DNA of 64,000 nucleotides from Myxococcota bacterium (GCA_034002465.1 JAVFAO010000002.1:30-64029), one strand, 5' to 3'; positions 6,204 to 59,999 are shown, counted from the first letter of the stretch. The notes: generated by a model not told the origin, from the sequence alone. Program-made: numbers and translations.

Positions 6204-6283
6204 GGCGGTGTTCTCCTTGCGGTGGAGGCATGGCTCTCGTCGGCGAGAATTGCAGCTTTGCCAGTGTAGTGGCACGTATCCAA

Positions 6284-6312
6284 GGAGGGCGGACACGCAG
6301 GTCCGCCCCTAC
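6284..6312. repeat. REP-D hairpin copy 1 (GGAGGGCGGAC-acgcag-GTCCGCCCCTAC), possible terminator-like element
   Basis: Perfect 8-bp GC stem with a 6-nt loop. Same architecture at 15734 and 37814. No U-tract follows. Confidence 0.6.
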
Positions 6313-6346
6313 TTCCTGTCGATTAGGCGCTTGGCCTATTGACGAG
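6311..6346 (-). repeat. 36-nt repeat family (B), single copy
   Basis: Reverse complement ctcgtcaatAGGCCAAGCGCCtAATCGACAgGAAG matches the unit of the arrays at 18.0, 45.2 and 52.3 kb. It abuts REP-D copy 1. Confidence 0.75.
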
Positions 6347-8862: not shown

Positions 8863-8912
8863 GTGGGGCGCTGCACCACACCCCGCCAAAGGGCTGTGCC
8901 CTTTGGAATCCC
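8863..8912 (-). repeat. REP-A copy 2
   Basis: tgtggggcgctgcaccacaccccgccaaagggctgtgccctttggaatccc has the same double-hairpin consensus. Lies between two minus-strand genes. Confidence 0.85.
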
Positions 8913-9093
8913 TTTGAGTTCATATTATTGCCCGCATAGCTCAGGGCTACTCGAGCACGAGCTCGCATTGCCCGCAAGCGTTGCGCCTCAGTGTGGTTCT
9001 CAGTTGGCGATCGAGCTCTGCGCGAGACGTCGACCTGTGGAAAAACTACGCCCCTACGCCCAGCTTGGATCGAAAGCGAGCGAATGCAATCGC

Positions 9094-11313
9094 TCAGGCC
9101 TTTCGGCGCCGCCGCGAATGGCGCGCATCGAGGCGCCAGAAGCCCAGCGCCAACAACAAGAACCAGAGCGGCATCTGAGCACGTCCGCTGAAGAGCTGAC
9201 AGCCCTCGCCCTTGCAATCGCCGTTCTCGCATTTTTCGTCGCCGCCGCAGCGACGACCGCAGCTACCGCAGTTGTTGTTATCCGAGCTGAGGTTGAGACA
9301 AGCCCCACCGGGACAACAGCTCTGGCCGTTGCCGCAAGAGACACCACAAGCTCCACAGTTGTTGGTGTCCGAGCTGAGGTTGTAACAGGCCGCACTGCCC
9401 CCACCATCGGGGCAACAGTCCTCGCCGCTGCCGCAAGAGACGCCACAGGCACCACAGTGGTTGGGATCGCTGAGCAAATCGGGGGAGCAGCTCCCAGAGC
9501 AGCAGACAGGTGCCGTGCCTACGCAAGGCACATTGCAAGCCCCGCAATGCTCGAGGCTCTGGTTGCCATTGTGGCAGGTGGCACCGCAGCAGATGTGGTC
9601 CTGTGGGCAGGCTTGACCGCAACCACCGCAGTGGCTTGCTGAGGTCTGAAGGTCGGCGCAGTCCTCGTCGGCACAACACACCAGCGGAGAGACGCAGTCG
9701 GTGCAAACGCCGCAGCCCTGGCGGCAGACACCATCACAGCAGGCCCACCCGGCCTGGCAAGGAGTGTTGCACCCCCCGCAGTGCATCACGCTGTTCCGGG
9801 TGTCCACACAGACGCCGCCGCAGCACTTGCTTCCGGGAGCACAGGGCGTGCAATTCTGGCAAGCCTGATCGGTGCCAAGCGTCTTGCATTGCCCACTGCA
9901 GCACATTTGATTGCCAGCGCAGGGGGTCCCACAAGACCCGCAATGCGCTTCGTCATCGCTCAGGTTCACGCAAGCATTTCCACAATCAACCAGGTTCTCG
10001 GGGCATAGGCACTGACCATTGCTGCAGGTCTGGGTCGGCAAACAAACATTGCCACACGCCCCACAATTGTTGCTGTCGGCCAAGACATCGACACAGGCCC
10101 CACCACAGCAGTCCTGGCTCGAGCTGCATCCGTTGTAGCAGCTCCCGCAGTGATGCCGGTTGCTCTGCAGCTCCTCGGGCGACAAACACGTCCGTTCACA
10201 GCACAGAGCCCCGTCGGTGCAGGTGGTCCCGCACGCACCACAGTTGTCGTTGTCGTCCTTGACATTGACGCACACGCCATCGCAGTTGTTGGGCAGCTCT
10301 GCAGGACAGCGACACAAGTCGTACTCACAGACCATGTTCGGGTCTGGGCACATGCGGCAGCCTGGGCCACAGTGCTCAGTGGTGCTCTCCACGCACTGGT
10401 CTTGGTCCGCAACGTTGCAGCAGTAGGTCCCTCCTTCGCAGCGCTCGGTTCCGCCACACAGGCAGGGCTCCCCCTCATTCAAACAGCTCCCCAGGACGCC
10501 GCCATCCCCTGCCGCATCGGCACAACAATAGGTATTGGGCTGCGTGCAGAATGGCCCCTCGGCACCAGGCTGGTCACCACAGGTGCACTTCCCCTCAAAG
10601 CACACTTCACCTTCCCCGCACTCCACCCCACAGCCACCACAGTTGTAGGGATCCTCCTGCAGATTGAAGCAGATGAAGTCGTCGTTTGTGGGGTCGGTGT
10701 CTTTTCCAAGGGGATTTTCGCAACACTCCTGGGGCGGCACACAGTAGCCCTGTCCACAGCTACACACCGCTTGGTAGCAGTTGTAGTCGCAGCGCGTTTC
10801 GCAGTTTCCACAGTGTTCTTTGTTACTGAGCAGGTCGATGCACTTCTCTTCGCCACAGGTCTCAGTGCCTGCCGGACAGGTGCAAGCTCCGCCTAGGCAA
10901 ACCTCTCGTTCGCCACAGGGGTTGCCGCAGACCCCACAGTTGCGGGCGTCATTCTTGAGGTTCACGCAGACACCGTCGCAGCACTCCTCAGCGCTGCAGT
11001 AGGCGCAGGTCTCGGGCTTGTCGTCCTCGACGTCGAGCTCGAGCTCACTGTCCTCGACGCTGTCGAGCTCGGTCTCTGCCTCCTCGGTGTCGATTTCGGC
11101 GTCCCCCTTGGCCAAGCACACATTGAACTCGAGGTTGCAGTATTCGAAGTCAGCGCACTCGCTGTCGCTCGTGCAACGCTTCATCGCGCTGGCGTCGAAA
11201 GTACACCCTGCAACGAGCGAAAGCAGCAGGAGCGAGAGCAACAAGCCTCCACGTCGAGCCAGGTGCCAGAAAGCCAGTTGGAATGCGAATATGGCCTGTT
11301 GCTTCTGCTTCAT
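9094..11313 (-). CDS. large Cys-rich repeat lipoprotein (Stig1-like CxxCG repeats) with MYXO-CTERM-like C-terminal anchor
   Basis: MKQKQQ...LLLLSLVAGC lipobox. More than 12 repeats of the type CC.G.CV.L..D..NCG.CG..C. The C-terminus GCQLFSGRAQMPLWFLLLALGFWRLDARHSRRRRKA resembles a MYXO-CTERM sorting signal. Confidence 0.8.
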   Translation of the reverse strand: MKQKQQAIFAFQLAFWHLARRGGLLLSLLLLSLVAGCTFDASAMKRCTSDSECADFEYCNLEFNVCLAKGDAEIDTEEAETELDSVEDSELELDVEDDKPETCAYCSAEECCDGVCVNLKNDARNCGVCGNPCGEREVCLGGACTCPAGTETCGEEKCIDLLSNKEHCGNCETRCDYNCYQAVCSCGQGYCVPPQECCENPLGKDTDPTNDDFICFNLQEDPYNCGGCGVECGEGEVCFEGKCTCGDQPGAEGPFCTQPNTYCCADAAGDGGVLGSCLNEGEPCLCGGTERCEGGTYCCNVADQDQCVESTTEHCGPGCRMCPDPNMVCEYDLCRCPAELPNNCDGVCVNVKDDNDNCGACGTTCTDGALCCERTCLSPEELQSNRHHCGSCYNGCSSSQDCCGGACVDVLADSNNCGACGNVCLPTQTCSNGQCLCPENLVDCGNACVNLSDDEAHCGSCGTPCAGNQMCCSGQCKTLGTDQACQNCTPCAPGSKCCGGVCVDTRNSVMHCGGCNTPCQAGWACCDGVCRQGCGVCTDCVSPLVCCADEDCADLQTSASHCGGCGQACPQDHICCGATCHNGNQSLEHCGACNVPCVGTAPVCCSGSCSPDLLSDPNHCGACGVSCGSGEDCCPDGGGSAACYNLSSDTNNCGACGVSCGNGQSCCPGGACLNLSSDNNNCGSCGRRCGGDEKCENGDCKGEGCQLFSGRAQMPLWFLLLALGFWRLDARHSRRRRKA

Positions 11314-11384
11314 CACCCCACCCTGAGCGCAGTTGAAGTCACGCTCGGCTCTCCCTCAGGTCGCTCAACGCTGCTCATCAGCTC

Positions 11385-11430
11385 GACTTCTTGTCGATTG
11401 GGCACTTGGCCTGTTCCCCCAAGTTCAAGG
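11385..11430 (-). repeat. 36-nt repeat family (B), single copy
   Basis: cgacttcttgtcgattgggcacttggcctgttcccccaagttcaagg. Overlaps the slyD stop region, upstream of the Cys-rich gene. Confidence 0.8.
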
Positions 11431-17430: not shown

Positions 17431-17964
17431 TCAGGCGCGAAAGAGGAGCTGTCGATAGTGCCGCAGCTCGGCGATGGATTCGTGGATGTCGTCGAGCGCG
17501 CGGTGGACGGAGTTCTTGTGGTAGACGTGCTCAGGATACCAGCGCCGCGCCAGCTCTTTGAGGGAGCTGACATCGATGAGGCGGTAGTGCAGGTAAGCGT
17601 TGAGCTCTGCCATCTCACGGCAGAGGAAGCGGCGATCTTGCCAGATCGAGTTGCCGCACAGGGGCGCTTTTCCCAAATCCACGTGCTGAGAAAGGAAATC
17701 GAGCGTGGCGAGCTCGGCGTCGCGGGTCTGCACGGTCGACTGGCGCACCTTCTCGAGCAAGCCAGAAGCCGTATGATGTTCCGTATTCCACTCGTCCATG
17801 CGGGCGAGCAGCGCCTCATCTTGGTGGATGACCAAGGACGGCCCCTCGGCAACCAAGCTCAGGTCGGCCTCGGTGACCAGGGTGGCCATCTCGATGATGG
17901 ACTCACGCTCCGGGTCGAGCCCGGTCATCTCTAGGTCCATCCATACCATTCGCAACGCGCGCAT
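17431..17964 (-). CDS. orn: oligoribonuclease
   Basis: ORF 17431..18300 is over-extended through the 36-nt array. ATG 17964 follows [64 protein letters not shown]. Confidence 0.9.
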
Positions 17965-18027
17965 CGTCACCCCCTCGTGCAAGCACTCGCCAATGGGGCG
18001 AGCGCTGTCCGAATCCCTGTCACTACA

Positions 18028-18182
18028 CCAACAAGTTGGGAAAAGCAGGCCAAGCGCCCAATCAACAAGAATTTGCGGAAACAGGCCAAGCGCCCAATCA
18101 GCAAGAACTTGCGGAAACAGGCCAAGCGCCCAATCGACAAGAAGTTGGGGGAACAGGCCAAGCGCCCAATCAACAAGAACTC
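18028..18182 (+). repeat. 36-nt repeat family (B), tandem array of about 4.3 units, no spacers
   Basis: caatcaacaagaatttgcggaaacaggccaagcgcc / caatcagcaagaacttgcggaaacaggccaagcgcc / caatcgacaagaagttgggggaacaggccaagcgcc / caatcaacaagaac, head to tail. Confidence 0.9.
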
Positions 18183-18336
18183 CGAACGCCAACGGCGCGC
18201 GGAGCAAGGGCCGGACAGTGAAGCAAGCTTCGAAGCGAAAGTCCATGCTCGGATGGAAAGTAGTGGAAAGCGAGGCCCTGCGCTCGGACACCAGGCTCAC
18301 ACCTCAGCCTTCGCTCGTCCCTCGTTCCTCTCCTGC

Positions 18337-20098: not shown

Positions 20099-23000
20099 TC
20101 AGGACTTCGAGTCGACGTATTTTTGGAGCTTTTTTGCCCGGTCGTTGTCTGGCCCGAGCAGCTCGATGGCTTTCTTGTAAGCTTCGAGGCCCTGGCTCTC
20201 CTTGCGCAAGCGGATGTAGAGGGTTCCCAGCTCTTCCCAATACGAAGCGGAGCCGCCCTTGGCGTCGCGTACCTTCTCGAGGTGTTTGAGTGCACGGGCA
20301 GAATCGCCGCTCTTGATGTAGGCGAGCCCCAGTTGGTAGTTGGCCTCGACATGGCCACCGTTCTTGGCCACTGCCGCTTCGAGCTTGGCCACTGCTTCCG
20401 AAGCTTTACCTTTGGAGAGCAAGGCCTTGCCTTCCTTGACGAGGCTATCGACGGAGTCGCCTTGCTTCTCGATGCTGACCACGGGCTTCTCCTCGACGGG
20501 AGGCTTGGGCTTCTCCTCGACGGGAGGCTTGGGCTTCTCCTCGACGGGAGGCTTGGGCTTCTCCTCGACGGGAGGGGTGGGGTCGACGACGGGAGTACCT
20601 GAGCTGGGGTTGCTCTGGGTCGGAGGGTCGACATCGGGGAGCTCGTCTTCAGGGAAGGCGAGCTCATCGAAGTTCTGGGCAAACTCAGTGGCCCGCTCAT
20701 GGATGAGATCGGCCATGAACTGTGCGGCCATGCCCGTCGGGGAGTTGCGCGGATCGTCGAGCGGCACGGGCTCGACGTCGGCAGGAGCGGGGTCTGGCGC
20801 AGGGGTCTCGTTCTTCTCTGGGGCGACGGCGGCGATGCCTGGCGGCGCCTTCTCTGGTTCTTTGTCGGACTTGGCGTTGTTGAAGAGGAAAATGATGCTG
20901 ACGATGAGGCCGACGAAGAACGCGATGGCGAAGATGATGCCCCATGGCGGACCACGGCGCGCCGCTGGCGCATCATCCGAAGCGGCGAAGAAGGAGTCGT
21001 CGAAGGTGCCTGAGTTACGCTGCGTTCGCTGTGCGCCATCGAGCTGAGGAGAGCTCGTCGATTTGATGACAGGCTCGATGCGCTCCTTGCTTTGTCTGGC
21101 CTCGCTGGGCTGTGCAGATTCCGCGGTGGCGCTGGAGTCGAGGGGCTCGGGCGCAGAGACCTTGGTGGAAGAGCTTGGCGTACGCCTCGACCAGCCACGG
21201 GGCTCCTTCGGGCCTGCATCGATGCCGTTCTTGACGGGAATGGGCTGAGGAACAGAGGGCGATGGCGCGGACGGCGACGGAGTGGCCTTGGCCGCCGTCT
21301 CGGCGGCTGGCTGGGAAGGCTGCGGTGCTTCGCTGATGGAGCCGGCAGAGGGCTTCAGCTCTTGTCGATGGGGCGCTTGGCCTTCTTGTTGATGTGGCGT
21401 CTGGCCTGTTCCCTCGAGTTTTTGGAACTGCGCCGAGCTGCTCGACGGTTCGGAATCGGCACGCAGCGGGGATTCCGAGGCGGGCTCTGCGCTTGCAGGC
21501 TGCGCGGGGACGATGTTGGGCGTTGATGCGGCGCTTGGTGGTGGCGCGCTACTCGAGGTGGAGCTTGGCCCAATGGCGCTCGGCGAAGGCACCTCGAAGG
21601 TGTCCGTTATCTCGCGAGCATCAGCTCCCCCCGAAGATCGCTGGGGAGGTGTTGCGTCTCTCTCGCTCTCGAATGCCTCATCGCGGGCGGGAGCGAGCGG
21701 CGCACGAGGTGTATCGGAGTCCGAGGGCACTGGCTTGAGAGCGGGCATCCGTGGGCTGGAGCCGTACAAGCCCTCGCGAGCGGAGAAGCTGGGTGTGCTC
21801 AGCGGCGTCCCGAGCTCGATGTCGATACCGTCGACGTCCTCGCTGGGCCCAACGAGGCGCATGGGAAAGTCGAAATCGTCATCAAGGAAGCTGTCATGTA
21901 GGTCCTTCTCGAGCTTGCTTGGCTTGAGCACATGCTCGACGCTGATCACCTCGTATTGTTTTTCGGGCTGTTTGCGCAGGGCTCTCTGGCCGTTGGCCAG
22001 TTGCAGGGCGGCGACCACCTGCTCGCGCATGGAGCTTTGGGGTTCGGATGCAGGACGCTGTGGGGCGGGACGAGCGTCAGCAAAAGCGTCACTGGCGCGC
22101 CGCCGTCGGTCTTCGATTTCCTGTCGAGCACGGTTCTCGATGGCTCTCGCGCTCTGGGCTTCATTTCTCGCCAGCGCTTCGAGCACTGCAGCCTGGTCAT
22201 CACGCAGTCGCTGTCGCTCGGTATCCAAGCGACGTCTCTCCTGCTCCTGACGCACGGCTTGCTGGGTGAGCTGCGCCGCAGCATCGATGCGCACGCGACG
22301 CGAGAGATCTTCGTCGGTGATGGGGGCGGGTCCATCTGCAGGGGTGCGGTCAGCCGCAGGAACCTCGACAGCGGGTCGATTCTCTCGACGGAACTCATTG
22401 AGGGCTGGTCCCTCACGACCTCGCGCGGGGGCTCGCAGTGCATCACCACGCAGCTCGGGGCGCGGCTGCGTCCAATCATCGAAGCCACCGAGCCAATCGA
22501 GGACGGCGCGACGCTGCACGTCGTCCTCTTCCTCGAGCGAGGGCTCGATTTCGGTGGGGGCGCGCAGTAGGCCGCGTTGCACGAGTCGCTCAGAGACGAG
22601 CAAGACCTCGACATCAGGGAGTGGTGAATCGTCGAGCACCTCGGCGAGCTTGCGGACACCGTCGAAGAGGCGGAGCAAGGCCTCGATTTCGGGCGGGAGC
22701 TGCTGCGCGGCGTCGGCGAGGCGGCGCATATCGGCCTGGAAGACCTGGTCGAGCGCTCCGAGGCGGACGCTGACCTCGTCCCATTGCTCGGCTTGCTCGA
22801 TCGCCTCGACGAGCAGACTCGGCGTACTGCGTTTGACCCGCCGTTGACGGCGCAAGGCATCGACATACTTGAGCGAATAGCGGCCAGCGCTGAGACGCAT
22901 GAGGCGGAAGAACGCCGCTTCGCCCCGCTTTCTCCCGGAGCTCGCGTCGACGATGGCCCCATCTGCGAAGAAGACCTCGCCCTGCATGCCATCACTGGCG

Positions 23001-23503
23001 TTGAAGCCCAAGCTTCCGCTCTTGCCGCTGTCGAGCACGGTCTGCACGATTTCCAAGGGCGAGAGCTCATCCAAGCTGCCTTCGACCGGCTCCGCCTGAT
23101 CTTCAGCCAGCGCTTCCATGGCGCGTCGCTGCTGATGCAGCTCGATTCGTGTCGCCAGCTCTTTGGCAAAGACGGGCTTGGTGAGGAGCTCATCGAAGCC
23201 GAGCTCGAAGGCCTTCAGCTTCGTGGCGAGTTCCTTGTTGCTGCTCAGCGCGAGCAGAGTCATGCGGTCGTGGCGCGGTTCGACACGAATTCGCTCGGCG
23301 AGCTCGAAGCCGTCCATGGGCGACATCTCGAGCTCGATGAGGAGTGCACCATAGTCGGCGCCGTCCGCATCCAGCAGCTCGAGAGCACGAAATGCATCGT
23401 TGCAGGACTCGACGCCGAAGCCTGCTTTCTTCAGACTCACCGTCAGCACCCGCGACTCGCGCGGATCGGCGCTGACGATCAAGACACGTTTGCCGTCCGA
23501 CAC
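20099..23503 (-). CDS. response-regulator receiver + DUF4388 domain protein with long disordered region, one TM helix, PVEEKPKP repeats and C-terminal TPR
   Basis: GTG 23503 gives VSDGKRVLIVSADPRE (alternative GTG 23599). Receiver ...LIELEMSPMDGFEL. DUF4388-like LSPLEIVQTVLDSGKSGSL...GEAAFFRLM. TM WGIIFAIAFFVGLIVSIIFLF. TPR-like C-terminus. Confidence 0.8.
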   Translation of the reverse strand: MSDGKRVLIVSADPRESRVLTVSLKKAGFGVESCNDAFRALELLDADGADYGALLIELEMSPMDGFELAERIRVEPRHDRMTLLALSSNKELATKLKAFELGFDELLTKPVFAKELATRIELHQQRRAMEALAEDQAEPVEGSLDELSPLEIVQTVLDSGKSGSLGFNASDGMQGEVFFADGAIVDASSGRKRGEAAFFRLMRLSAGRYSLKYVDALRRQRRVKRSTPSLLVEAIEQAEQWDEVSVRLGALDQVFQADMRRLADAAQQLPPEIEALLRLFDGVRKLAEVLDDSPLPDVEVLLVSERLVQRGLLRAPTEIEPSLEEEDDVQRRAVLDWLGGFDDWTQPRPELRGDALRAPARGREGPALNEFRRENRPAVEVPAADRTPADGPAPITDEDLSRRVRIDAAAQLTQQAVRQEQERRRLDTERQRLRDDQAAVLEALARNEAQSARAIENRARQEIEDRRRRASDAFADARPAPQRPASEPQSSMREQVVAALQLANGQRALRKQPEKQYEVISVEHVLKPSKLEKDLHDSFLDDDFDFPMRLVGPSEDVDGIDIELGTPLSTPSFSAREGLYGSSPRMPALKPVPSDSDTPRAPLAPARDEAFESERDATPPQRSSGGADAREITDTFEVPSPSAIGPSSTSSSAPPPSAASTPNIVPAQPASAEPASESPLRADSEPSSSSAQFQKLEGTGQTPHQQEGQAPHRQELKPSAGSISEAPQPSQPAAETAAKATPSPSAPSPSVPQPIPVKNGIDAGPKEPRGWSRRTPSSSTKVSAPEPLDSSATAESAQPSEARQSKERIEPVIKSTSSPQLDGAQRTQRNSGTFDDSFFAASDDAPAARRGPPWGIIFAIAFFVGLIVSIIFLFNNAKSDKEPEKAPPGIAAVAPEKNETPAPDPAPADVEPVPLDDPRNSPTGMAAQFMADLIHERATEFAQNFDELAFPEDELPDVDPPTQSNPSSGTPVVDPTPPVEEKPKPPVEEKPKPPVEEKPKPPVEEKPVVSIEKQGDSVDSLVKEGKALLSKGKASEAVAKLEAAVAKNGGHVEANYQLGLAYIKSGDSARALKHLEKVRDAKGGSASYWEELGTLYIRLRKESQGLEAYKKAIELLGPDNDRAKKLQKYVDSKS
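20483..20578. repeat. coding 24-nt tandem repeat x4 (PPVEEKPK)
   Basis: gggcttctcctcgacgggaggctt repeated head to tail. Translated as PPVEEKPKPPVEEKPKPPVEEKPKPPVEEKP in the response-regulator protein. Confidence 0.9.
21361..21412 (-). repeat. degenerate 36-nt family (B) copy (about 1.5 units) embedded in frame in the response-regulator CDS
   Basis: cttgtcgatggggcgcttggccttcttgttgatgtggcgtctggcctgttccc. Translated as GTGQTPHQQEGQAPHRQE inside the disordered segment. Confidence 0.65.
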
Positions 23504-23883
23504 CTCGCCCCCCGGAGCTCCGAATCGTTGCCTCGTTCCTGCGCTCCTCCGGGCGAGCTTCCACCCAGACGAACGCCGAAGTCGTGCGCTGTTGCGCACA
23601 CGACCCCATTCGACTCATAGCACAGCAGGTGGTCGGAAAGCCAGCTTGCGGACTTCGACGTGTCGCTCCCTCGAGCACGCCAATCACCACCAACAGCACG
23701 CTTCGCTCATCACCCCGAGAAGCCGAGTCGGTTTGCGACACGGAATACGACGGTGGTGTCTGCAGCCCCCTGCAAAAGCTCGATGCTCTTGCTTATCCTT
23801 TCGCTTTCCGACTCTCGTCCGTGCAATGGCCATGGCTACCAGAGCCGTTCCCTGCTCCACCGTGCAGAGCGTGGCAACGGCTT

Positions 23884-26277: not shown

Positions 26278-27549
26278 TCACGCCTCGCCTTCAGGCTCAG
26301 CCTGCGGCGCGCCGAGCTCAGCCTCAGTCGCCTCGCCTTCGCCCGCCCCCTCTGTTGGACGAACCCGCTCCAAGCGCGAACGAGAGCTGCGCTTCTCGAG
26401 CTTCTCGGCCCGCGCGAGGCGACCCTCACTAGCGCAAGCCTCTCTGGTCTGGGACACCACCTTCTCAGCCTTCTCGGCCTTCTCGGCCTTCTCGGCCTTC
26501 TCGGCCTTCTCGGCCTTCTCGGTTGTCTCGGCCTTCTCGGGCTTCTCGGCCTTCTCGGTTGTCTCGGCCTTCTCGGCCTTCTCGGGCTTCTCGAGCTTCT
26601 CGGCCTTCTCGAGCTTCTCCAGCTTGTGAACACTCTCTGGAGCATCGAGAATCAGTGGAGAAGCGGCCCTGGGCTCCTCGCTCAAGCGCCGTTTGCTGCG
26701 CGGCAAGCGCAGACGCAGGCGTTTGAGCAGCGCCGAGTTCCCCTCCTGCTCCTGCATCAGCTTCTCGTTGAACAGCTTCTGCAGCAGATCTCGGAGCTCC
26801 TCGGTCGACAGGCGCCGCGTGAGCTCCTCCTGGAATGCGACCGAGATGATCCCTGTCTCTTCCGAGACCACCACGACCGCAGCATCGGTGCTCTCGCTCA
26901 GACCGAGTGCGGCCCGATGGCGAGTGCCCAAACTCTTGTCGAGGTGGGTGTTGGTGGTCAAGGGAAGGAATACGCCCGCCGCGGCCACCCTCCCAGAATG
27001 GATGATCACCGCGCCGTCATGGGTGGGATTGGCCTTCTGCGGTACGAAGAGGGAGACCAGCAGCTCCTTGGTCACCCGAGCATCAACCAGGATGCCATCG
27101 CTCATGTAGCTCTCGAGGCTGGCGAGTCGCTCGATGACAATGAGCGCACCGATGCGTCGCTCGGCCAAGAAAGCGCAGGCCTTGACCACGTCCTCGAGGA
27201 TGGCGCTCTGCTCGGGAACCGAGGTCGCTGCCAGCCGCCCGGAGCGCCCCACCTCGCCCAGTCCGCGCCGGATGTCCTCCTGGAAAATGATGACCAGAAT
27301 GACCACGAAAGAGGCGATGAACTTGTCGAGCAACCAATTCAAAGTGGGCAAGCCCAGGTACTCACGTTCGGAGACGACGTAGAGGATCACCAGGAAGAGC
27401 AAGCCGGCCAAGACCTGTACCGCCTTGGTGCCCTTGATCATCAGCAGCACGCGGTAGAGCACATAGAACACCAAGGCGATATCGGCCACAGCAATCAGGG
27501 CGTTTTCGCCACTGAAGACTGCAAAGGCCTGTTTCAGAACCTCGCCCAT
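26278..27549 (-). CDS. cdaA: diadenylate cyclase CdaA (DisA_N/DAC domain) with ~150-aa low-complexity EKAEK C-terminal extension
   Basis: ATG 27549 follows GAGAGGG. Three N-terminal TM helices. DAC motifs RIGALIVIE, HDGAVII, GTRHRAALGLSE, VVVVSEETG. The tail is EKLEKAEKLEKPEKAEKAETTEKAEK... Confidence 0.88.
   Translation of the reverse strand: MGEVLKQAFAVFSGENALIAVADIALVFYVLYRVLLMIKGTKAVQVLAGLLFLVILYVVSEREYLGLPTLNWLLDKFIASFVVILVIIFQEDIRRGLGEVGRSGRLAATSVPEQSAILEDVVKACAFLAERRIGALIVIERLASLESYMSDGILVDARVTKELLVSLFVPQKANPTHDGAVIIHSGRVAAAGVFLPLTTNTHLDKSLGTRHRAALGLSESTDAAVVVVSEETGIISVAFQEELTRRLSTEELRDLLQKLFNEKLMQEQEGNSALLKRLRLRLPRSKRRLSEEPRAASPLILDAPESVHKLEKLEKAEKLEKPEKAEKAETTEKAEKPEKAETTEKAEKAEKAEKAEKAEKAEKVVSQTREACASEGRLARAEKLEKRSSRSRLERVRPTEGAGEGEATEAELGAPQAEPEGEA
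26461..26630. repeat. coding 9-nt tandem repeat (CTTCTCGGC-like, about 19 units)
   Basis: cttctcagc cttctcggc cttctcggc ... cttctcgag cttctccag. Encodes the (E/P)KAEK tail of CdaA. Confidence 0.9.
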
Positions 27550-28670
27550 GACCCTCTCTCGCTCTGCTCGCTCACTGCGCTCGACAGCAGGAGCGCGTCC
27601 CTCGCCCCCGCTACATCGTGTACCCGTAACACCGAAGCGCCAGAGAGCAACGCCGCCGTGACCGCAGCGCAGCTCGCAGCGTCCCGATGCTGAACCTCCC
27701 GCCCCGTCAGCTCGCCGAGAAAGCGCTTGCGACTCGGCCCAATGAGCACACCGCGCCCAAGACAAGCAAAGTGCCGTGAGCCCACCAACAATGCCGTGTT
27801 CTGTCGCATGTCCTTGCCGAAGCCCAGACCCGGATCAATCAGGATGCGGCGCAAATCCACGCCAGCAGAGTACGCTCGCAGGAGCGCCGACTCAAGGTAT
27901 TCGATGAGCTCCCCAAAGAGATCGGCGTAGTGCGTGTCCCTCTGCATGGTCTGAGGCTGGCCACGCATATGCATCGCAACCCACGAAGCGCGGCGTTCTG
28001 CGACGAGCGGCAGCATCTCAGGATCAGCACCAGCGCTGACGTCGTTGACCACCGATGCCCCCAGCTCCAGTGCACGCCGCGCCACCTCTGCCTTGCGCGT
28101 ATCCACGCTGAGCGGAACAGCATGCCGCTTGGCCAGCGCCTCGATCACCGGAAGCACACGACGACACTCTTCTTCCACGTCCACAGCGTCCGCGCCAGGT
28201 CGCGTCGACTCCCCACCCACGTCCAAGACCTGCGCGCCCTCCTCAATCAATCGCTGCGCATGCGCCAAGGCCGCGTCGAGATGCGTATAGCGTGCCCCAT
28301 CGCTGAACGAATCGGGGGTGCAGTTGAGAATGCCCATCAGCAAAGGAAAACGATGTTCCTGCTCCCCAATGCGCCACGACGCAGGGCGCAGTTGCTGCAG
28401 CGCCGCGCGCATCTCCTGCTCCAACGGTGAACCGCCAAGCTGGCGCCATGCCTCGGCTCGCCGCGCAAAAAGCAGGCTTCCCCCCTCCGCTACAGAGAGA
28501 GGCTGCTCCACTGGCAAAGCATTGAGCTCGGACGCGCTCAGCTCGAGGCGTTCGAACGCGTGGGGAGCGGGTATGGAAACAGCAGGAGCGAAGAAGACAG
28601 GCCAAGGCGGCAAGCTGACGCCCTGGACAATCGTTTCACGATACAGGGTGAACGCTGTACTTGTGGCCAT
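27534..28670 (-). CDS. folP: dihydropteroate synthase with ~100-aa N-terminal extension
   Basis: MGILNCTPDSFSDG, VLDVGGESTRPGA, SVDT, VNDVS, GLGFGK. ATG 28670 (after GAGGGA) lies 29 nt after the ftsH stop. The alternative ATG 28412 would give a canonical-length protein. Confidence 0.85.
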   Translation of the reverse strand: MATSTAFTLYRETIVQGVSLPPWPVFFAPAVSIPAPHAFERLELSASELNALPVEQPLSVAEGGSLLFARRAEAWRQLGGSPLEQEMRAALQQLRPASWRIGEQEHRFPLLMGILNCTPDSFSDGARYTHLDAALAHAQRLIEEGAQVLDVGGESTRPGADAVDVEEECRRVLPVIEALAKRHAVPLSVDTRKAEVARRALELGASVVNDVSAGADPEMLPLVAERRASWVAMHMRGQPQTMQRDTHYADLFGELIEYLESALLRAYSAGVDLRRILIDPGLGFGKDMRQNTALLVGSRHFACLGRGVLIGPSRKRFLGELTGREVQHRDAASCAAVTAALLSGASVLRVHDVAGARDALLLSSAVSEQSERGSWARF

Positions 28671-33733: not shown

Positions 33734-33946
33734 GCTGATCTCCTGTCTCGATGATTGAGCCCAAGGGCTGCACACGAACACGCTCGCAGCCTCGGGTGCC
33801 GTTTCCGCTTGCCCTATAACTGCATTCGCCCAGAGCGACAAGTTTCTTGTCGCCTCCTGTGTCATTTTCCGCGGCCGCTTGGAGGCTCGACTCGTCACCT
33901 GCACATGATCATCGATGATGAGTTCGCCAACTGATACAAAAAACAA

Positions 33947-33993
33947 GGGATTCCAGAGGGCTAGCCCTTTGGCGGGGTGGGGCAGCGCCCCAC
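33947..33993 (+). repeat. REP-A copy 3
   Basis: gggattccagagggctagccctttggcggggtggggcagcgccccac. Lies in a divergent intergenic region, followed by B and C modules. Confidence 0.85.
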
Positions 33994-34018: not shown

Positions 34019-34063
34019 CGACTTCTTGTTGATTGGGCACTTGGCCAGTTCCCCAAGTTGTTG
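34019..34063 (-). repeat. 36-nt repeat family (B), single copy
   Basis: cgacttcttgttgattgggcacttggccagttccccaagttgttg. Confidence 0.8.
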
Positions 34064-34103
34064 CGTGCCTAGCACGCACCCTTTCGGGCCTGCTTCGCAG
34101 CGA

Positions 34104-34130
34104 TTCTTCGCCTCCTGGCTTCGACTTGTC
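34104..34130 (+). repeat. repeat module C copy 1 (TCTTCGCCTCCTGGCTTCGACTTGTC)
   Basis: Same 20+ nt motif in inverse orientation at 49901-49936. Both copies adjoin B-family sequence. Confidence 0.6.
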
Positions 34131-42490: not shown

Positions 42491-42752
42491 CGAAGAGCAC
42501 TCCCATGACGAGCAGCAGGGTCATTCGCCCTAACCACCCAGAATCAAAGAAAAAAGCAGCGCAACACAGCGCCGTGCACAGCGCCGCCCTCGCGCCAAGT
42601 GAGCGCTCGGACGAGGCATATTGCCCGAAACGCCATCCGTGCGGAAGGCTCCCCACGCCTCACCAGCGTGCTACACTTGTTCGGAATACGATTGAAGCAG
42701 CCAACCCAGAGCTCGGCGCGGCCCAACACAACCTGACGCGCTCCTGGCAACG

Positions 42753-43547
42753 ATGATCTCAACCATGCTCTCAACCTCGATCGATAGCCCTCTTCGGATT
42801 TCGAGACGCACCCACCTGTGCATCATCGGGCTGGGGCTCGCCTTCAGCGCCTGCGCTTGCCGCGACACAGCGACACGACCCAGCGAGCCCCCTTCGACGA
42901 CGACTTCGAACACCGTATCGGAACCGGCAGCGCCACGCTGTGACTACCCCATCGACAAAGTGCGCACACGATGGACCAAGGACATCGAAGGCTGCGGCGA
43001 GTTGCTGGCCATCATCGAGACCTCGGCAGGAGCGCTGCGTTGCACCCTGTATGAGCTCGAGGTACCGCGAACCGTCGACCACTTCGTGGCCCTCGCCCTC
43101 GGACTCAAGTCCTGGAAGGACCCGCTCACAGGCGAGCAGGTCCAGCGTCCGCTGTACCAGGACCTCGTCTTCCATCGGTTGATACCCGGCCTCATTATCC
43201 AAACCGGTGATCCCACGAATACAGGAGAGGGGCACCCTGGCTACTTCATCGATGACGAAATCGTCGATGGCCTCTCCCACGATGCGGTCGGCGTGCTCTC
43301 GATGGCGCAGACCCAGCCCAACGGCAACGGCAGCCAGTTCTTCATCACTGACGGCAAAGCCAAGCAGCTCGACGGCCGCTACACCATCTTCGGGCGATGT
43401 GAGCCTGAGGACCTCATCCACGCCATCGCGAACGCAGAAAGCGACGGCAACGGCCGTCCTCTCTCTCCAACCCGCTTGATTCGCATTCGCATCGAGCGCG
43501 CTCCTTCGGAGGAAGGCGCTGAAGCGCTCCCTGATGAAGAGCAGTAG
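42753..43547 (+). CDS. cyclophilin-type peptidyl-prolyl isomerase, lipoprotein
   Basis: Lipobox GLAFSAC. VFHRLIPGLIIQTGDP, GVLSMAQTQPNGNGSQFFIT, GRYTIFGR. Start could be 42753 or 42765. Confidence 0.85.
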   Translation: MISTMLSTSIDSPLRISRRTHLCIIGLGLAFSACACRDTATRPSEPPSTTTSNTVSEPAAPRCDYPIDKVRTRWTKDIEGCGELLAIIETSAGALRCTLYELEVPRTVDHFVALALGLKSWKDPLTGEQVQRPLYQDLVFHRLIPGLIIQTGDPTNTGEGHPGYFIDDEIVDGLSHDAVGVLSMAQTQPNGNGSQFFITDGKAKQLDGRYTIFGRCEPEDLIHAIANAESDGNGRPLSPTRLIRIRIERAPSEEGAEALPDEEQ

Positions 43548-45139: not shown

Positions 45140-45189
45140 GTGGGGCTCTGCCCCACACCCCGCCAAAGGACTGCGCCCTTTGGAATCCC
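45140..45189 (-). repeat. REP-A copy 4
   Basis: gtggggctctgccccacaccccgccaaaggactgcgccctttggaatccc. Confidence 0.85.
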
Positions 45190-45222
45190 TTTCATTTCAA
45201 GATGTTGCTGACACACTCTCCA

Positions 45223-45404
45223 CAACTTGGGGGAACAGGCCGAGCGCCCAATGGACAAAAACTTGGGAGAACAGGCCGAGCGCCCAATGGACAAAAACTT
45301 GGGGAACAGGCCGAGCGCCCAATGGACAAAAACTTGGGGGAACAGGACAACTTGGGGAAACAGGCCAAGCGCCCAATGGACAAGAAGTGCACAATCAACA
45401 AAAA
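45223..45404 (+). repeat. 36-nt repeat family (B), tandem array of about 5 units, no spacers
   Basis: acttgggggaacaggccgagcgcccaatggacaaaa appears three times, then a shortened unit, a further unit and a partial one. Array-specific variants (ccGagcgcccaatGgacaaAa). Confidence 0.9.
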
Positions 45405-46657
45405 AGCCCCAGGATCCATCCCTCCTCGTCCAGCACCGCACGGAGCTGAGCAGCCGGCAGCGCCGCCATCCCAGCAAAGTCGCCGCGCAACGCAGCTTCC
45501 TGGTCACGTTGTCGTAGGGCCAGCACCAAGCCCCTGAGCGAAGCCTCCTCACGAAGCAGCTTGCGCCCTTGCGCCGTCTGCTCCACTTCTTCCGCCTCGA
45601 AGCGAAGAGCAGGCAGCTCCGCATAGGCCTCGGCAATGACGATATTCCCCTTGCCACACTCAGCCAGGCCAGCCCCGGTTTCGAAGGGCCACACCAGAGT
45701 CTTGTCGGCGAGCTCTGGAGCGAAGCGCAAGCGATGAAGATAGGGAATGCCCAGAATGGCCTTGGAGGCGTGTGATGGCGCACCGTAGAGCTTCCAAGCG
45801 AGGCCGGAGGCTTCACGCAAACGATCGACCAAGCGCTGTTCCTCGAGTGCCGAAGCCACCCGCTCGGCACCAAGCCCAGCGCTCAGCTCGCGTGATGGCG
45901 CCCCCCAAAACACCCGCTCTTTCCCTCTGCGTTCGAGCTCGAGGTTGAGCTCGGCAGCCAAGGCGTAGAGGTTGTTCCACTTTCTCCCCGCCTGCTCATC
46001 TTGCACGCGCGCCTCGAAGAGCGCCCAGCTTGCCAACCAAGGCCTAGCCTCCAAGCCCAACGCCGCTGCAAAGCCTCGAGGGAAGCCAAGCGCGAAATCC
46101 ATACACAGCAACACGCGTGCACCCGCCTCGCTCAGGGTGCGCAACCGTGCGCGCAGCGCCTCGAAGGCAGTCAGTCGCGTGCTGGGATTGTGGGTCTCGA
46201 GAGAACCCTCTGCGCTCAGCTCAGCCCACCACACCCCATCCCGCCCCTGCTTCGGTTTCTGCAGGCTGCTCCAGTGCACGGCGAGGTAGCTGTCGAAGAC
46301 TGGACCGCAATCGGGCGGCGCCTCCGCTGCGGCTGGCGACGGTGCACTGACGCTGTGGAGCACCGGCTCGGTACCCGTCTCCAAGCGCTCCTGGCCAATC
46401 GAGGGGGCTGCTTCGAGCTCAGCGGGGCTCGCCTGCTCTGGATTGAAGGTAGCGTCAACCACATGCCAACGCAGCTCTCCCAGCGGCACGGAGCCGATAC
46501 CCTTGAACAAGGCCCGCCACCCCCGCTGTGCCGAGCCAGTGACGTAGCTCACGAGCCGAACACGCGTCTCACCCTCGATCCAAACGCGCTGGCCCACGCT
46601 CAGCTTCGTGTTCCCAGTGTTGAGAGCAACAGAGTCTTGATTGTTGGTGATGGGCAT
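45395..46657 (-). CDS. hypothetical protein, possibly DUF429-like (RNase H-fold) with N-terminal SH3/tudor-like segment
   Basis: ATG 46657 follows AAGGAG. LAVHWSSLQKPKQGRDGVWWAEL and the C-terminal DEEGWILG recall a DUF429-like family (low certainty). The 3' end runs into the 36-nt array. Confidence 0.5.
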   Translation of the reverse strand: MPITNNQDSVALNTGNTKLSVGQRVWIEGETRVRLVSYVTGSAQRGWRALFKGIGSVPLGELRWHVVDATFNPEQASPAELEAAPSIGQERLETGTEPVLHSVSAPSPAAAEAPPDCGPVFDSYLAVHWSSLQKPKQGRDGVWWAELSAEGSLETHNPSTRLTAFEALRARLRTLSEAGARVLLCMDFALGFPRGFAAALGLEARPWLASWALFEARVQDEQAGRKWNNLYALAAELNLELERRGKERVFWGAPSRELSAGLGAERVASALEEQRLVDRLREASGLAWKLYGAPSHASKAILGIPYLHRLRFAPELADKTLVWPFETGAGLAECGKGNIVIAEAYAELPALRFEAEEVEQTAQGRKLLREEASLRGLVLALRQRDQEAALRGDFAGMAALPAAQLRAVLDEEGWILGLFC

Positions 46658-49865: not shown

Positions 49866-49900
49866 GTGTGCCTCCGACGTTGCTCCTGGAAACTCGCAGC

Positions 49901-49936
49901 CAATCGACAAGAAGCCAAAGCCAGGAGGCGAAGACT
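49901..49936 (-). repeat. partial B unit + repeat module C copy 2
   Basis: caatcgacaagaag (B fragment) followed by ccaaagccaggaggcgaagac, which is the reverse complement of module C at 34104. Confidence 0.6.
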
Positions 49937-50153
49937 CGCTGCGAAGGCAGCCCGAAGCTTGCGTACCACGGCTGGCACGCAACAACTGAAGATAGCAGAT
50001 CCGAGAGCAGTGCAGAACACTGAGAGAGATGCGCTTTCGGCTGAGCTGTGCTAGGGAAGCGTACGGCTCGACTGCCACCGAGATGGCTCGACGGCAACTA
50101 TCCTCGAGGGCTGCGCAGCATACACGCTGCCACCACAACAAAAGGATCTGACG

Positions 50154-50909: not shown

Positions 50910-50944
50910 GCCTTGCAAGACGACTTCAAGATCATGAATTAAAA

Positions 50945-50993
50945 GGGATTTCAAAGGGCGAGCCCTTTGGCGGGGTGTGGGGCAGAGCCCCAC
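50945..50993 (+). repeat. REP-A copy 5
   Basis: gggatttcaaagggcgagccctttggcggggtgtggggcagagccccac. Lies between convergent genes. Confidence 0.85.
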
Positions 50994-51027
50994 GAAGCCC
51001 TTCCCTTCCAAATCCAAATTCCCCAAG

Positions 51028-52332: not shown

Positions 52333-52448
52333 CCAAGAACTTCGGGGAACAGGCCAAGCGCCCAATCGACAAGAACTTCGGGGAACAGGCCAAGCGCCCA
52401 ATCGACAAGAACTTCGGGGAACAGGCCAAGCGCCCAATCAACAAAAAG
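52333..52448 (+). repeat. 36-nt repeat family (B), tandem array of about 3.2 units, no spacers
   Basis: caagaacttcggggaacaggccaagcgcccaatcga appears three times nearly perfectly, then caatcaacaaaaag. Confidence 0.9.
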
Positions 52449-52642
52449 TCTGGCGGAAATGCAAGCAGGATTCAAGAGCCTTGGCGACAGCCCTTTGTTG
52501 CTGCACCTGCCGCTCTTCTACACGTGATGCACAAAGGACGTGCCACACTTGCCGCAGCAGAGCGCTGCTCCTTGGCGAAGCTCGGTGCGTGAAGCGCAAC
52601 AAGAGCTTGATTTCGGTCCGAGCCTTCGCTAGATTCCGCTCC

Positions 52643-52727
<85 letters not shown>

Positions 52728-52852
52728 TTCGTGATTCCGCTGCTGCTCAAGTGCTTGCGAGACAGCCTCGTTGCAGGCCTTGCCTGTCTCGAGCCACGAA
52801 TCGGCAGCACTCGACAAGCTCTGAGCTGCGCCAGCAAGCTCTCGAAATCAAA

Positions 52853-52901
52853 GGGATTCCAAAGGGCATTGCCCTTTGGCGAGGCGCGGAGCAGAGCCCG
52901 C
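52853..52901 (+). repeat. REP-A copy 6 (second hairpin diverged)
   Basis: gggattccaaagggcattgccctttggcgaggcgcggagcagagcccgc. Lies 126 nt after tRNA-Ser. Confidence 0.75.
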
Positions 52902-56950: not shown

Positions 56951-58413
56951 GAGCAGCGCTGCGAGGGTCTGGCGAACGAATGTCGATCACAACGCTGCAC
57001 AGTTTGCTCGCCCGCCACGAACACCAGGCAGTGGTCCGCCGCCTCAGCCCTGCGCGCAGCGACCGCGAGCTTGAGCTGCTGGCACACGCCCTACGCAAGC
57101 TAGGCGAGGACGACGAAGCAGCACGGCTCATCGAGGCTCGGCTGGCGACGGGGCTGGCGAGTCATCCGCGCTCGCTGCGCTTGTTGGCGCGCATCCGCTG
57201 TGCCCGCAAAGACTACGACGGCGCCTGCGCGCTGTTCCGGCTCGCTTTGCAGGCCCGCCCCGAGCAGAGCTGGTATCGGCTGGCGATGGGCGATGTCTAT
57301 CGCTTCCATGCCGACGAACCCGAGCGCGCGCTCGCCATCTACCGCGCGGCGCTTCCAGCCCCAGCGCAGCTCAGGGGCGACAAGGAGCAGACCGACCGCT
57401 ATCTTCTGCGGCGGATAAGCCACATCCTCGATGAGCTCGACCGCCCCGAGGAGGCCATTGCGGCCTTCGAAGCCTTCCTCCGCCTCGCCCCGGCCAAGTT
57501 CTACGAATCCGACTGGGCCAGGCTGGGCCGCTGCTACGAGCGAATCGGCCAACTCGACCGCGCTCTCGCGCTCTGGCTGCAGGGCACGACCAAGCGGCGC
57601 GGCACCAAATGCCTGCGCGAGCTGGAGCGTGCAGCACCGGAGCTTGCGGCGACGGTGCTGCTGCCAGAGGCGCCGAAGGCACCGCCTGAGGCCCTGCGCA
57701 TCCCCGTGAAGACCCGCCTCTTGACTGAGGAGGACGAAGCCCCGAAGGTCATCGCCGAGGCCGTCGCAGGGGTGGCGCGGGCGGGTGATGTGCTGACCTT
57801 CGCCTCGGCCCCCGCAGCCATCACCGAGGGACGCGCGGTCTCGGCAGAGTGTATCGACGCTGGGCTGCTCGCCCGCTTCCTCAAGCGCTACGTGAAGAAG
57901 CCTGCCTACAACCCCCACCAGTCAGACGCCCCGCTGGCCAGCGCCGTCTCGTTTCAGCTTGCCATCGAGCTCGCTGGCGCGCCGAGGATTGTGGCCGCCG
58001 CCGCCGCCGGGGCAGCCGGCAAGCTGGTGGGCCAGAAGGGCTGGTTCTACACCGTCGCTGGCGACACCATCCGCATGATCGACGGTCTCTGCGGCGCGCT
58101 CGCGCCCTACGACTTCTGCGTCACGCCTGGTCCCTACGACGCCGACTGCCTGGCTGAGCTCATCTGCGAGGCAACGGGGCATCAGGCCGCGATCGTCGAC
58201 GCCCACGACCTGGGTCTCGCCTGGGTGGTCGGCGCCAGCGCAGGTGTCGACCGCGCCCAAGTCGCGAGCTTCATGGTCGACAACCCCGCCGGCAACGAGG
58301 ACAACCAGACGCCGATCATTCTTCTCAGGGATGCGGGCGCTGCGGCGGGTTCGGAGGCAGGCTTGCCTGGAAGCCCTTCGATACGAAAAAGAGAAGGGAT
58401 TCCAAAGGGCTAG
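56947..58413 (+). CDS. TPR-repeat protein fused to an F420-0:gamma-glutamyl ligase (CofE)-like domain
   Basis: GTG 56947 overlaps the upstream stop (GTGA); alternative ATG 56980. The N-terminal ~230 aa are TPR-like. The C-terminal DVLTFASAPAAITEGRAV ... VDNPAGNEDNQTPIILLR resembles the PF01996 family (from memory). The stop codon lies inside REP-A copy 7. Confidence 0.65.
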   Translation: MRAALRGSGERMSITTLHSLLARHEHQAVVRRLSPARSDRELELLAHALRKLGEDDEAARLIEARLATGLASHPRSLRLLARIRCARKDYDGACALFRLALQARPEQSWYRLAMGDVYRFHADEPERALAIYRAALPAPAQLRGDKEQTDRYLLRRISHILDELDRPEEAIAAFEAFLRLAPAKFYESDWARLGRCYERIGQLDRALALWLQGTTKRRGTKCLRELERAAPELAATVLLPEAPKAPPEALRIPVKTRLLTEEDEAPKVIAEAVAGVARAGDVLTFASAPAAITEGRAVSAECIDAGLLARFLKRYVKKPAYNPHQSDAPLASAVSFQLAIELAGAPRIVAAAAAGAAGKLVGQKGWFYTVAGDTIRMIDGLCGALAPYDFCVTPGPYDADCLAELICEATGHQAAIVDAHDLGLAWVVGASAGVDRAQVASFMVDNPAGNEDNQTPIILLRDAGAAAGSEAGLPGSPSIRKREGIPKG

Positions 58414-58444
58414 CCCTTTGGCGGGGTGTGGGGCGGCGCCCCAC
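58396..58444 (+). repeat. REP-A copy 7
   Basis: gggattccaaagggctagccctttggcggggtgtggggcggcgccccac. The TAG in the first loop terminates the upstream ORF. Confidence 0.85.
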
Positions 58445-59773: not shown

Positions 59774-59999
59774 TGCCCCTCCGAAGCGGCGAGCTCGAGC
59801 TGCCACTCTAGCAAGTGAGGGGAACGAAACCAAATGGGAGAACGCAACCCCAGGCGCCGCAAGACAGGCAGCACGCGCAGCCAGGATGGCGAAGCATCGC
59901 TGCGAAGCAAGGCCGAGAAGTGCGCGTCACGGATGGGCCACAACAACACGGGGTGGTGTGCGCGGCAGAAGTCTTGGGAGTACGCGTGCGGCTCGCGAG

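Follow-up and report, generated by a model that had tools for sequence, protein, structure and literature searches.

A 36-nt tandem repeat family dispersed between and within genes of a Myxococcota bacterium

Among described bacterial repeats, the Rickettsia-specific palindromic elements (RPE) and the mycobacterial interspersed repetitive units (MIRU) are the closest to the element studied here. RPE (Ogata et al. 2000, reviewed in PMC2229807) are palindromic sequences of 105-146 nt with long stem-loops and terminal inverted repeats, which are inserted as single copies and affect 19 open reading frames (ORFs). MIRU (Supply et al. 1997, reviewed in PMC3184786) are 40-100 bp long and essentially intergenic, and have been described as containing imperfect inverted repeats as well as internal GC-rich inverted repeats. 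In this work, we describe a 36-nt repeat in a stretch of 64,000 nt from a Myxococcota bacterium (GCA_034002465.1, JAVFAO010000002.1:30-64029; hereafter the window), starting from a tandem array at 45,223-45,404 that had been flagged in a first-pass annotation. The unit is probably a lineage-restricted, non-autonomous interspersed minisatellite, that is, selfish or neutral DNA rather than a dedicated regulatory site or RNA gene.

Three other systems also enter the comparison. BrickBuilt of Porphyromonas gingivalis (PMC4596501) is built from a 23-nt unit with leader and tail subunits that have small inverted-repeat ends, is always intergenic and carries promoter elements. The pneumococcal BOX elements (A-Bn-C) and the Neisseria intergenic mosaic elements (NIME) are modular mosaic repeats (PMC3184786). 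PARCEL repeats (PMC2996958) consist of dyad-symmetric DNA that encodes 25-residue amphipathic domains in proteins of unassigned function, and they have spread across phyla by horizontal transfer.

The 36-nt unit and its ends

The flagged region consists of AACTTGGGGGAACAGGCCGAGCGCCCAATGGACAAA copies arranged head-to-tail. The unit is defined as (AAC)TT-GGGGGAACAGGCCAAGCGCCCAATCGACAAGAAG, and the same ends occur at many unrelated loci; the string first quoted for it is 35 nt long, not 36. Tandem Repeats Finder reports a period of 36 at 18046-18181, 45224-45346 (where the repeat continues to 45368) and 52334-52444. A 29-nt core, searched with at most 3 mismatches, has 11 matches in the window and none in 100 dinucleotide-preserving shuffles. 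The locus limits in the window were refined with an nhmmer profile made from ten units (Table 1). This profile recovers every locus listed in the first-pass annotation, where chance expects none, and bears out the dispersal in both orientations. At the flagged locus itself, positions 45390-45404 turned out not to belong to the array.

All loci share a common phase: they start within ..ACAA(GA)ACTT/GGGGG and stop after ..GACAAGAAGT(C/G). Dozens of arrays on other contigs finish with this 3' end too; those read in frame F1 end with ..NRQE and those read in frame F2 with ..IDKK. From the constant phase of the arrays together with the recurring 3' end, it follows that the 36-nt element has defined ends. 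The number of unit copies per locus ranges from 1 to at least 8, in head-to-tail order.

Units are more similar within arrays than between arrays (0.904 versus 0.842; permutation p=0.0009), as had been noticed at the outset, and arrays on other contigs have private variants (e.g., IDKH, IDKE, IDNN, PNHQ and PNGQ). Since both features are expected of local slippage or unequal exchange, the likeness within arrays points to local amplification, and the original suggestion of local amplification or concerted evolution is supported.

Alternatively, the arrays might be captured concatemeric cDNA, which would arise when a reverse transcriptase (RT) goes over one short RNA template many times (telomerase-like, or rolling-circle as in DRT2/Neo) and would then be patched into chromosomal breaks. 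Head-to-tail order, the lack of stop codons, variable length and fixed junctions are all features of DRT2 products (PMC12039810, PMC11100668), and the ends of the element are fixed across dozens of sites, with neither inverted repeats nor target duplications. However, random capture of concatemers should give random end phases, whereas the 3' end is constant. No RT domain was found in the window ORFs, and no template RNA or Rfam match for one in the window. Integration is also not known for DRT2 products, and we consider this explanation very improbable.

Spread of the family and insertions in conserved genes

For the analysis beyond the window, a consensus array was translated in six frames and used to search a protein database, followed by a HMMER scan with the protein P0005. 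The first search returned 32 proteins and the second 96 matches, and motif counting over both sets gave 100 ORFs with about 389 units. Proteins of at least 250 aa account for 43 of these 100 array ORFs, and 25 have at least 60 ORF residues on both sides of the array. All ten matches that were checked, and all named ones, come from one NCBI 'Myxococcota bacterium' metagenome-assembled genome (MAG; RBU37_ locus tags). If the window belongs to this MAG, the family is genome-wide, but in essentially one lineage. In any case, the unit is not confined to the region in which it was noticed: there are about 100 further ORF-overlapping loci on other contigs, apparently of the same MAG.

Unit copies were also found on two small contigs of a JGI metagenome (Ga0116164) and on an ENA contig. 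An exact-pattern scan of the GTDB representative genomes did not find the 29-mer, and scans of GTDB with a 19-mer and with a degenerate pattern gave, among the matches listed, single chance matches that cover the seed alone. A scan of viral contigs gave one chance match, and blastn with the composite of two units and module C (see below) found nothing in plasmid or phage records. The closest genome, as judged by its orn protein (only 67% identical), contains no copy of the unit, so that it offers no synteny comparison.

As with RPE, the family occurs as in-frame insertions in conserved genes, which we detected by comparison with PDB chains or homologues (P0011, P0006, P0022, P0009 and P0212) and with the Pfam Pkinase profile (P0173). 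The most detailed case is P0011, a mannose-1-P guanylyltransferase (ManC). Its residues 1-158 and 212-392 align to residues 2-157 and 164-332 of PDB 2x5s, leaving 53 residues in the query against 6 in the chain. Between the invariant residues I153 and F216 it has 62 residues, while 74 of 77 homologues have 14-22. An AlphaFold2 model of P0011 computed on the homologue alignment has a mean pLDDT of 89.6 and a pTM of 0.87, with values of 43-58 in the insert blocks and at least 81 elsewhere.

Comparable additions were found in an HgdC/BadF-type ATPase (P0006; 63 versus 1 residues against PDB 4eht, in an antisense frame), in an RlmL-like methyltransferase (P0022; 76 versus 17 against PDB 3v8v) and in a histidine kinase (P0009; 71 versus 6 against PDB 9jfj, within the HisKA/DHp region). 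In the Ser/Thr kinase P0173, the array lies in the N-lobe after the first ~21 profile positions, and the Pfam Pkinase match starts at profile position 22, just after it. The AroB-AroA protein P0212 has four units in an AroB loop, which amount to a 48-residue insert; with the array removed, its flanks line up by eye with what we take to be the E. coli AroB sequence. In the homologues, the residues at which the two halves of a split gene meet again are adjacent. The inserts displace no host sequence; they just add 12-residue repeats to loops and linkers. Other carriers are CheA, a B12-binding protein, a TonB-dependent receptor, a DnaJ-like protein, a UvrD helicase and an O-antigen ligase, in which the arrays are located in linkers or terminal extensions.

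Three observations on reading frames indicate that the family spreads as DNA and not as a peptide motif. The kinases P0167 and P0169 each contain two arrays that are read in two different frames; in non-genic ORFs, the frame switches between units; and F1, which real genes use more than any other frame, has a GC content at third codon positions (GC3) of 0.33, which is foreign to a host whose genes have about 0.75-0.8. In the six-frame search, the units in ORFs were distributed as 63 in F1, 31 in F2, 12 in F3 and 22 antisense; for arrays with coding sequence on both sides, the counts were 7 in F1, 2 in F2 and 1 antisense. The grand average of hydropathy (GRAVY) is -1.4 to -1.7 (hydrophilic) in the sense frames and 0.0 to +1.2 (neutral to hydrophobic) in the antisense frames, and hydrophilic sense frames fit the strong excess of these frames in genuine proteins.

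These results bear on the converse explanation, in which the primary object is a 12-residue peptide repeat, selected as a flexible linker or binding motif and shuffled between genes, and the intergenic copies are its decayed remnants. Many arrays do lie in long ORFs and are predicted to be disordered, frame F1 is dominant, and coding repeats that move from gene to gene have been described before, namely PARCEL (PMC2996958). However, two unrelated peptides and an antisense one are used, at times in a single protein, and the codon usage of F1 is not that of the host. In addition, nucleotide identity is high at all codon positions, and the intergenic copies are as well conserved as the genic ones. 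For example, the intergenic array 3 of the window is 96% identical internally. The peptide explanation thus seems to us distinctly improbable.

Copies in the window, companion repeats and structural tests

Table 1. Positions of the 36-nt unit, module C and the B family (in the window unless another contig is named)
Feature	Position	Strand	Remarks
Array 1	18034-18182	+	four 36-nt units plus 5 nt
Array 2 (flagged locus)	45224-45389	+	166 nt in total, not a multiple of 3
Array 3	52334-52450	+	three near-identical units plus 9 nt
Single copy	11385-11425	-	nhmmer profile
Single copy	34020-34060	-	nhmmer profile
Copy truncated at 5' end	6305-6340	-	nhmmer profile
Partial copy	49897-49915	+	19-nt 3' fragment of the unit, fused to module C
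Copy within a coding sequence	21357-21424	-	one full unit plus a 24-nt partial duplicate; E=1e-4
Module C, ~64-72 nt (GCCAGGAGGCGAAGAMTCGCTGCGAAG..GCACGCAACAACTT)	34060-34123	-	adjoins the unit at 34020-34060
Module C, second copy	49916-49988	+	adjoins the fragment at 49897-49915
Module C, diverged third copy	59868-59950	+	~75% identical to the copy in contig L003
Module C, metagenome contig L003	165-243		order unit-C-unit
B family, ~55 nt	2496-2546, 8863-8920, 45140-45196	+	
B family, ~55 nt	33938-33990, 50937-50997, 52830-52899, 58387-58444	-	

ORF lists, GC3 phasing and Pfam scans give the window the gene content of an ordinary stretch of chromosome: a Ser/Thr kinase, GlmM, CdaA, FolP, FtsH, TilS, an MMPL transporter, a PPIase and Endo_dU, together with radical-SAM proteins, a Mur ligase and topoisomerase subunits of the GyrB/ParE and GyrA/ParC types. 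Among about 40 window ORFs scanned against Pfam, none was recognized as a transposase, integrase, reverse transcriptase or cas gene.

Array 1 occupies the spacer between the stop of a methyltransferase gene (18337, minus strand) and the start of orn (17964, minus strand), and is antisense to both. Array 2 lies between the convergent Endo_dU gene (stop at 45045) and the gene at 45395-46657, whose stop is 5 nt away. Its units measure 36, 36 and 35 nt, followed by an internally deleted unit of 18 nt and a last unit of 41 nt; with the 35-nt and the deleted unit, the array keeps no reading frame, and a coding repeat in the window arrays was dropped as a candidate for this reason. Array 3 is found in the divergent spacer between a lipoprotein gene (ATG at 52263, minus strand) and tRNA-Ser(UGA) (52642-52728, plus strand), 190 nt upstream of the tRNA.

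Among the other copies, the first base of that at 11385-11425 overlaps the TGA stop of an FKBP gene (11425-11427); this copy is co-directional with the flanking genes, the next of which starts about 70 nt downstream. The truncated copy at 6305-6340 precedes ORF 4593-6296, whose first in-frame start codon follows after 9 nt. The copy at 34020-34060 is part of a composite, with module C directly before it and a B hairpin element 25 nt after it (C-A-B, where A is the unit). On a contig from outside the window (L004), a copy fills the spacer between a stop and a start codon. The copy at 21357-21424 lies inside the coding sequence of a response-regulator/DUF4388/TPR protein (20099-23599), within a long low-complexity linker, and reads in frame F1 as ..LEGTGQTPHQQEGQAPHRQEL... 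The same protein also contains a perfect 24-nt repeat (3.9 copies, 20483-20575) that encodes (KPPVEEKP)n.

The first-pass annotation had proposed that all frames of the arrays stay open and that the arrays inflate neighbouring ORF calls. The former applies to the consensus, whereas one unit of array 1 has a stop in one reverse frame. The latter holds for orn, where array 1 causes the public annotations of 17431-18300 to differ: a 177-aa protein at NCBI (start 17964) and a 271-aa protein at JGI (start 18246), which reads through the array in an antisense frame. For the lipoprotein gene it concerns a mechanical ORF only, and it does not hold for the gene at 45395, where the array lies beyond the stop.

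Copies are therefore found in every context, namely upstream of genes, at convergent ends, in operon spacers and in coding sequence in at least three frames, which is hard to reconcile with a single cis-regulatory job. This diversity is a difficulty for the view that the arrays are cis-acting protein-binding sites, for example iteron- or centromere-like sites, landing pads of nucleoid proteins, or copy-number-variable promoter spacers that tune their neighbours. Spacer-less head-to-tail arrays do call to mind the iterons and centromeres of plasmids; start codons follow arrays 1 and 3 at a distance of 74-77 nt; and the single copy in L004 is directly upstream of a gene whose product is ParB-like by eye. 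However, the contexts are inconsistent (an antisense operon spacer, convergent ends, an overlap with a stop codon and at least 25 coding sequences), the unit has no dyad or half-site structure, and no sigma-70-like promoter or terminator-like site was found in or adjoining the arrays. Moreover, nothing would lead one to expect a binding site in enzyme loops in two frames. We regard the binding-site view as improbable, and the roles suggested earlier (a protein-binding array or a contingency promoter spacer) gained no supporting evidence.

Note that the lack of promoter- and terminator-like sites also led us to drop a sigma-70 promoter and an intrinsic terminator as candidates. A sigma-54-like TGG-N9-TTG in array 2 is, by eye, not conserved in arrays 1 and 3. 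Hairpins of the form UUGGG/CCCAA or CTTGG-N9-CCAAG are each broken by an uncompensated change in the arrays (by eye), and a CsrA-type GGA sponge RNA was dropped because there are no hairpins. A known RNA family was likewise dropped, since in Rfam only tRNA reached the gathering score and the arrays had no match at E<=1.

The unit has no significant fold: RNA fold z-scores ranged from -2.0 to +1.2 on both strands of the arrays and single copies, in agreement with the first-pass annotation. Between its ends (AACTT...AAGTC), no more than 4 bases are complementary, and repeat search and folding found no arms, i.e. no terminal inverted repeats. No locus-specific target duplication was found in the flanks of the eight loci. 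A short terminal redundancy is present but identical at every locus, and is therefore part of the element rather than a target duplication. The loci have no conserved leader or tail sequences, and module C is found at only some of them.

These results uphold the earlier statement that the family is neither CRISPR, REP/BIME nor a classical MITE. Unlike REP/BIME, which are extragenic imperfect palindromes that form stable GC-rich stem-loops, the unit has in-frame copies inside conserved genes and does not fold, whereas the co-resident B element folds into two hairpins. The family does have what characterizes an interspersed minisatellite, namely a short unit, head-to-tail arrays and many dispersed loci.

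We also considered whether the arrays might be CRISPR, either degenerate or lacking spacers, or else an artefact of assembling short reads. The length of 36 nt is typical of CRISPR repeats, and the contigs of two assemblies break at the arrays. However, spacers are absent, since the period equals the unit length and the units abut; the sole 'spacer' seen, of 72 nt in L003, is module C, which is itself repeated. The unit has no repeat hairpin, the window has housekeeping genes and no cas genes, and copies lie inside genes whose halves rejoin as described above.

The assembly was compared with Logan contigs (SRR25572339), whose identity with the window is 100% and in which two junctions between flank and array are seen again. 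Their ends fall at 45165 (within a B element), at 45361 (L092, within array 2) and at 52363 (L091, within array 3), and they thus confirm the junctions and the multi-copy nature of the repeats, not the unit copy numbers. The unique flanks and junctions in this independent assembly, and the presence of the unit in a different JGI metagenome and an ENA contig, also contradict an artefact. The repeat family is real, and the CRISPR or artefact explanation is hardly credible. A 96%-identical strain (SRR32001354, contig L090) covers no array. Upstream of the PPIase gene, L090 2027-2326 (~300 nt) corresponds to window 42669-42821 (~150 nt), with 87-88% identity on the MMPL side; this is a strain-variable spacer in which the 36-nt family is not involved.

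Module C adjoins the unit at several loci. For example, the fragment at 49897-49915 is weak alone (E=0.12), yet it abuts a 72-nt module C, which other copies also adjoin. The order unit-C-unit of contig L003 is also found, in translation, in P0008, P0024 and P0027. The four copies of module C contain small conserved hairpins (GCGA-AGAC-TCGC and a terminal hairpin of variable length).

The B element has the form GTGGGGCNCTGCCCCAC-ACCCCGCCAAAGGGC-NNN-GCCCTTTGGAATCCCTTT. Its two hairpins have 7 and 9 bp, and it is mostly located at convergent gene ends or after tRNA. Exact copies of its 29-base core are present in distant phyla, among them Oscillospiraceae, Methylobacterium, Devosia, Chlamydiales and Desulfovibrio, and a REP-like element would not usually show such identity across phyla. 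In Rfam the B element stays below the gathering score, the sole match being a weak full-length one to Clostridiales-2 (19.8 bits). One B element is directly preceded by a minisatellite (2128-2529; about 4.4 copies of a 67-nt GC-rich unit with alternating sub-repeats of 31 and 36 nt), in the convergent spacer between a kinase gene and a HerA-like gene.

A 9-nt repeat, CCTTCTCGG, with 17.8 copies (26460-26619) lies in the C-terminal tail of the CdaA-like ORF 26278-27765; read on the minus strand, the repeat would make this tail (E/K/A/P)-rich. A stretch of about 250-350 nt is locally duplicated (87-93% identity; 7194-7370/7446-7622 and 7345-7438/7696-7789) in a region where gene calls are uncertain. 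On the minus strand, 9094-11316 encodes a 740-aa protein with seven Stig1-like cysteine-rich repeats (PF04885, E=2e-46); the Stig1 family is named for a plant stigma protein and is unusual in a bacterium.

Interpretation and comparison with known systems

If the unit is an interspersed minisatellite, as we think probable, a founder copy would reach a new site by a mechanism that respects the fixed ends of the element and that would act in trans, because the window encodes no transposase, integrase or reverse transcriptase. Copy number would then grow or shrink by replication slippage or unequal recombination, which would homogenize each array. Insertions in coding DNA would survive since the unit comprises 12 codons, is stop-free in the sense frames and encodes very hydrophilic peptides, and selection would remove frame-shifting insertions and most antisense (hydrophobic) ones. 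Intergenic arrays, on the other hand, would be free to gather indels, as in array 2.

Several points weigh against this interpretation. Neither dispersal machinery nor a donor was found within the window, and the mobility of the unit and its behaviour as a variable-number tandem repeat (VNTR) are putative. The intragenic evidence comes from proteins on other contigs of a short-read MAG, in which copy numbers may be collapsed by assembly. Likewise, that the window is a contig of the RBU37_ MAG is something we infer from the family being found nowhere else and from the shared sources: the proteins of the window come from a 64,039-nt contig that is present at NCBI, at JGI and in Logan, as is the MAG. 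Gene calling accounts for part of the frame bias, and so does a second query that contained sense frames alone. The six-frame stop-free property is found in 13-15% of random 36-mers of like composition, i.e. it is not statistically unusual, and it was dropped as a signal. Finally, individual intergenic arrays may have a function, such as binding a protein encoded elsewhere; at single loci a regulatory, RNA-level or peptide-level role is conceivable, but finds no support here.

A more far-reaching alternative is that the unit is an active mobile element of an undescribed kind. In this case, a 36-nt sequence with fixed ends, and without hairpin, inverted repeats or target duplication, would be copied and tandemly extended by a dedicated enzyme (e.g., a telomerase- or DRT2-like RT, or a site-specific nickase or recombinase). 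It would enter dozens of housekeeping genes in frame, and thereby act across the whole genome of one Myxococcota lineage as a source of disordered 12-residue repeats in loops and linkers. We consider this possible but unlikely. Fixed element ends without a known transposition signature nevertheless make the dispersal mechanism a concrete question.

If the minisatellite interpretation is true, the family represents a second, independent and larger RPE-like case, in which selfish DNA occurs in essential genes of a free-living bacterium with a large genome, and without the palindrome thought typical. It would also represent minisatellite expansion inside catalytic domains (kinase N-lobe, AroB, ManC and histidine-kinase DHp) with the reading frame kept, and thus a natural experiment on loop tolerance and the origin of disordered linkers. 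In practice, the family breaks assemblies and misleads gene callers, as in the two annotations of orn and in dozens of 'hypothetical proteins' that are translated arrays. It could serve as a strain-typing (VNTR) marker for the lineage.

Of the systems introduced at the beginning, RPE share the occurrence of a short non-coding family both between genes and in frame inside conserved genes, with the host fold apparently tolerated. The differences are that the 36-nt unit is unstructured, lacks inverted repeats and the long palindrome, and is tandemly amplified at each site; that its host is a large-genome Myxococcota bacterium rather than a reduced intracellular parasite; and that at least 25 ORFs have coding sequence on both sides of an array, compared with the 19 ORFs of RPE. 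In-frame insertion in conserved genes, which is not visible from the window alone, places the family beside RPE-type selfish DNA and MIRU-type minisatellites and not outside the known kinds.

MIRU resemble the family as dispersed short direct repeats that form tandem arrays at tens of loci, with units that have open reading frames, and in having copies in operon spacers or over gene ends (compare the copy on the FKBP stop and the stop-start spacer of L004). However, the 36-nt family does not have their inverted-repeat structure and is common inside coding sequences, and the hallmark of MIRU is copy-number polymorphism among strains. BrickBuilt is likewise species-restricted and consists of a short unit (23 versus 36 nt) repeated in tandem without spacers at many loci of one genome, whereas its leader and tail, inverted-repeat ends, strictly intergenic location and promoter elements were not found for the 36-nt family, in which intragenic copies are common.

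As in BOX and NIME, the unit joins other modules (unit-C-unit in L003 and C-unit-B in the window), and the tandem number of one module is variable, like that of boxB. The modules of BOX and NIME have hairpins or inverted repeats, and mobilisation of BOX has been attributed to an IS-encoded transposase; for the 36-nt family no mobilising partner is known, and most of its arrays are without modules C or B. PARCEL is similar in being a tandem coding repeat in many unrelated ORFs that is apparently mobile within genomes. The 36-nt unit differs in that it encodes 12 hydrophilic residues, is non-palindromic, is largely intergenic as well and is found in one lineage only. While it sets itself apart by having no palindrome, inverted repeat or leader and tail, the family resembles MIRU and BrickBuilt in form and RPE in consequence.

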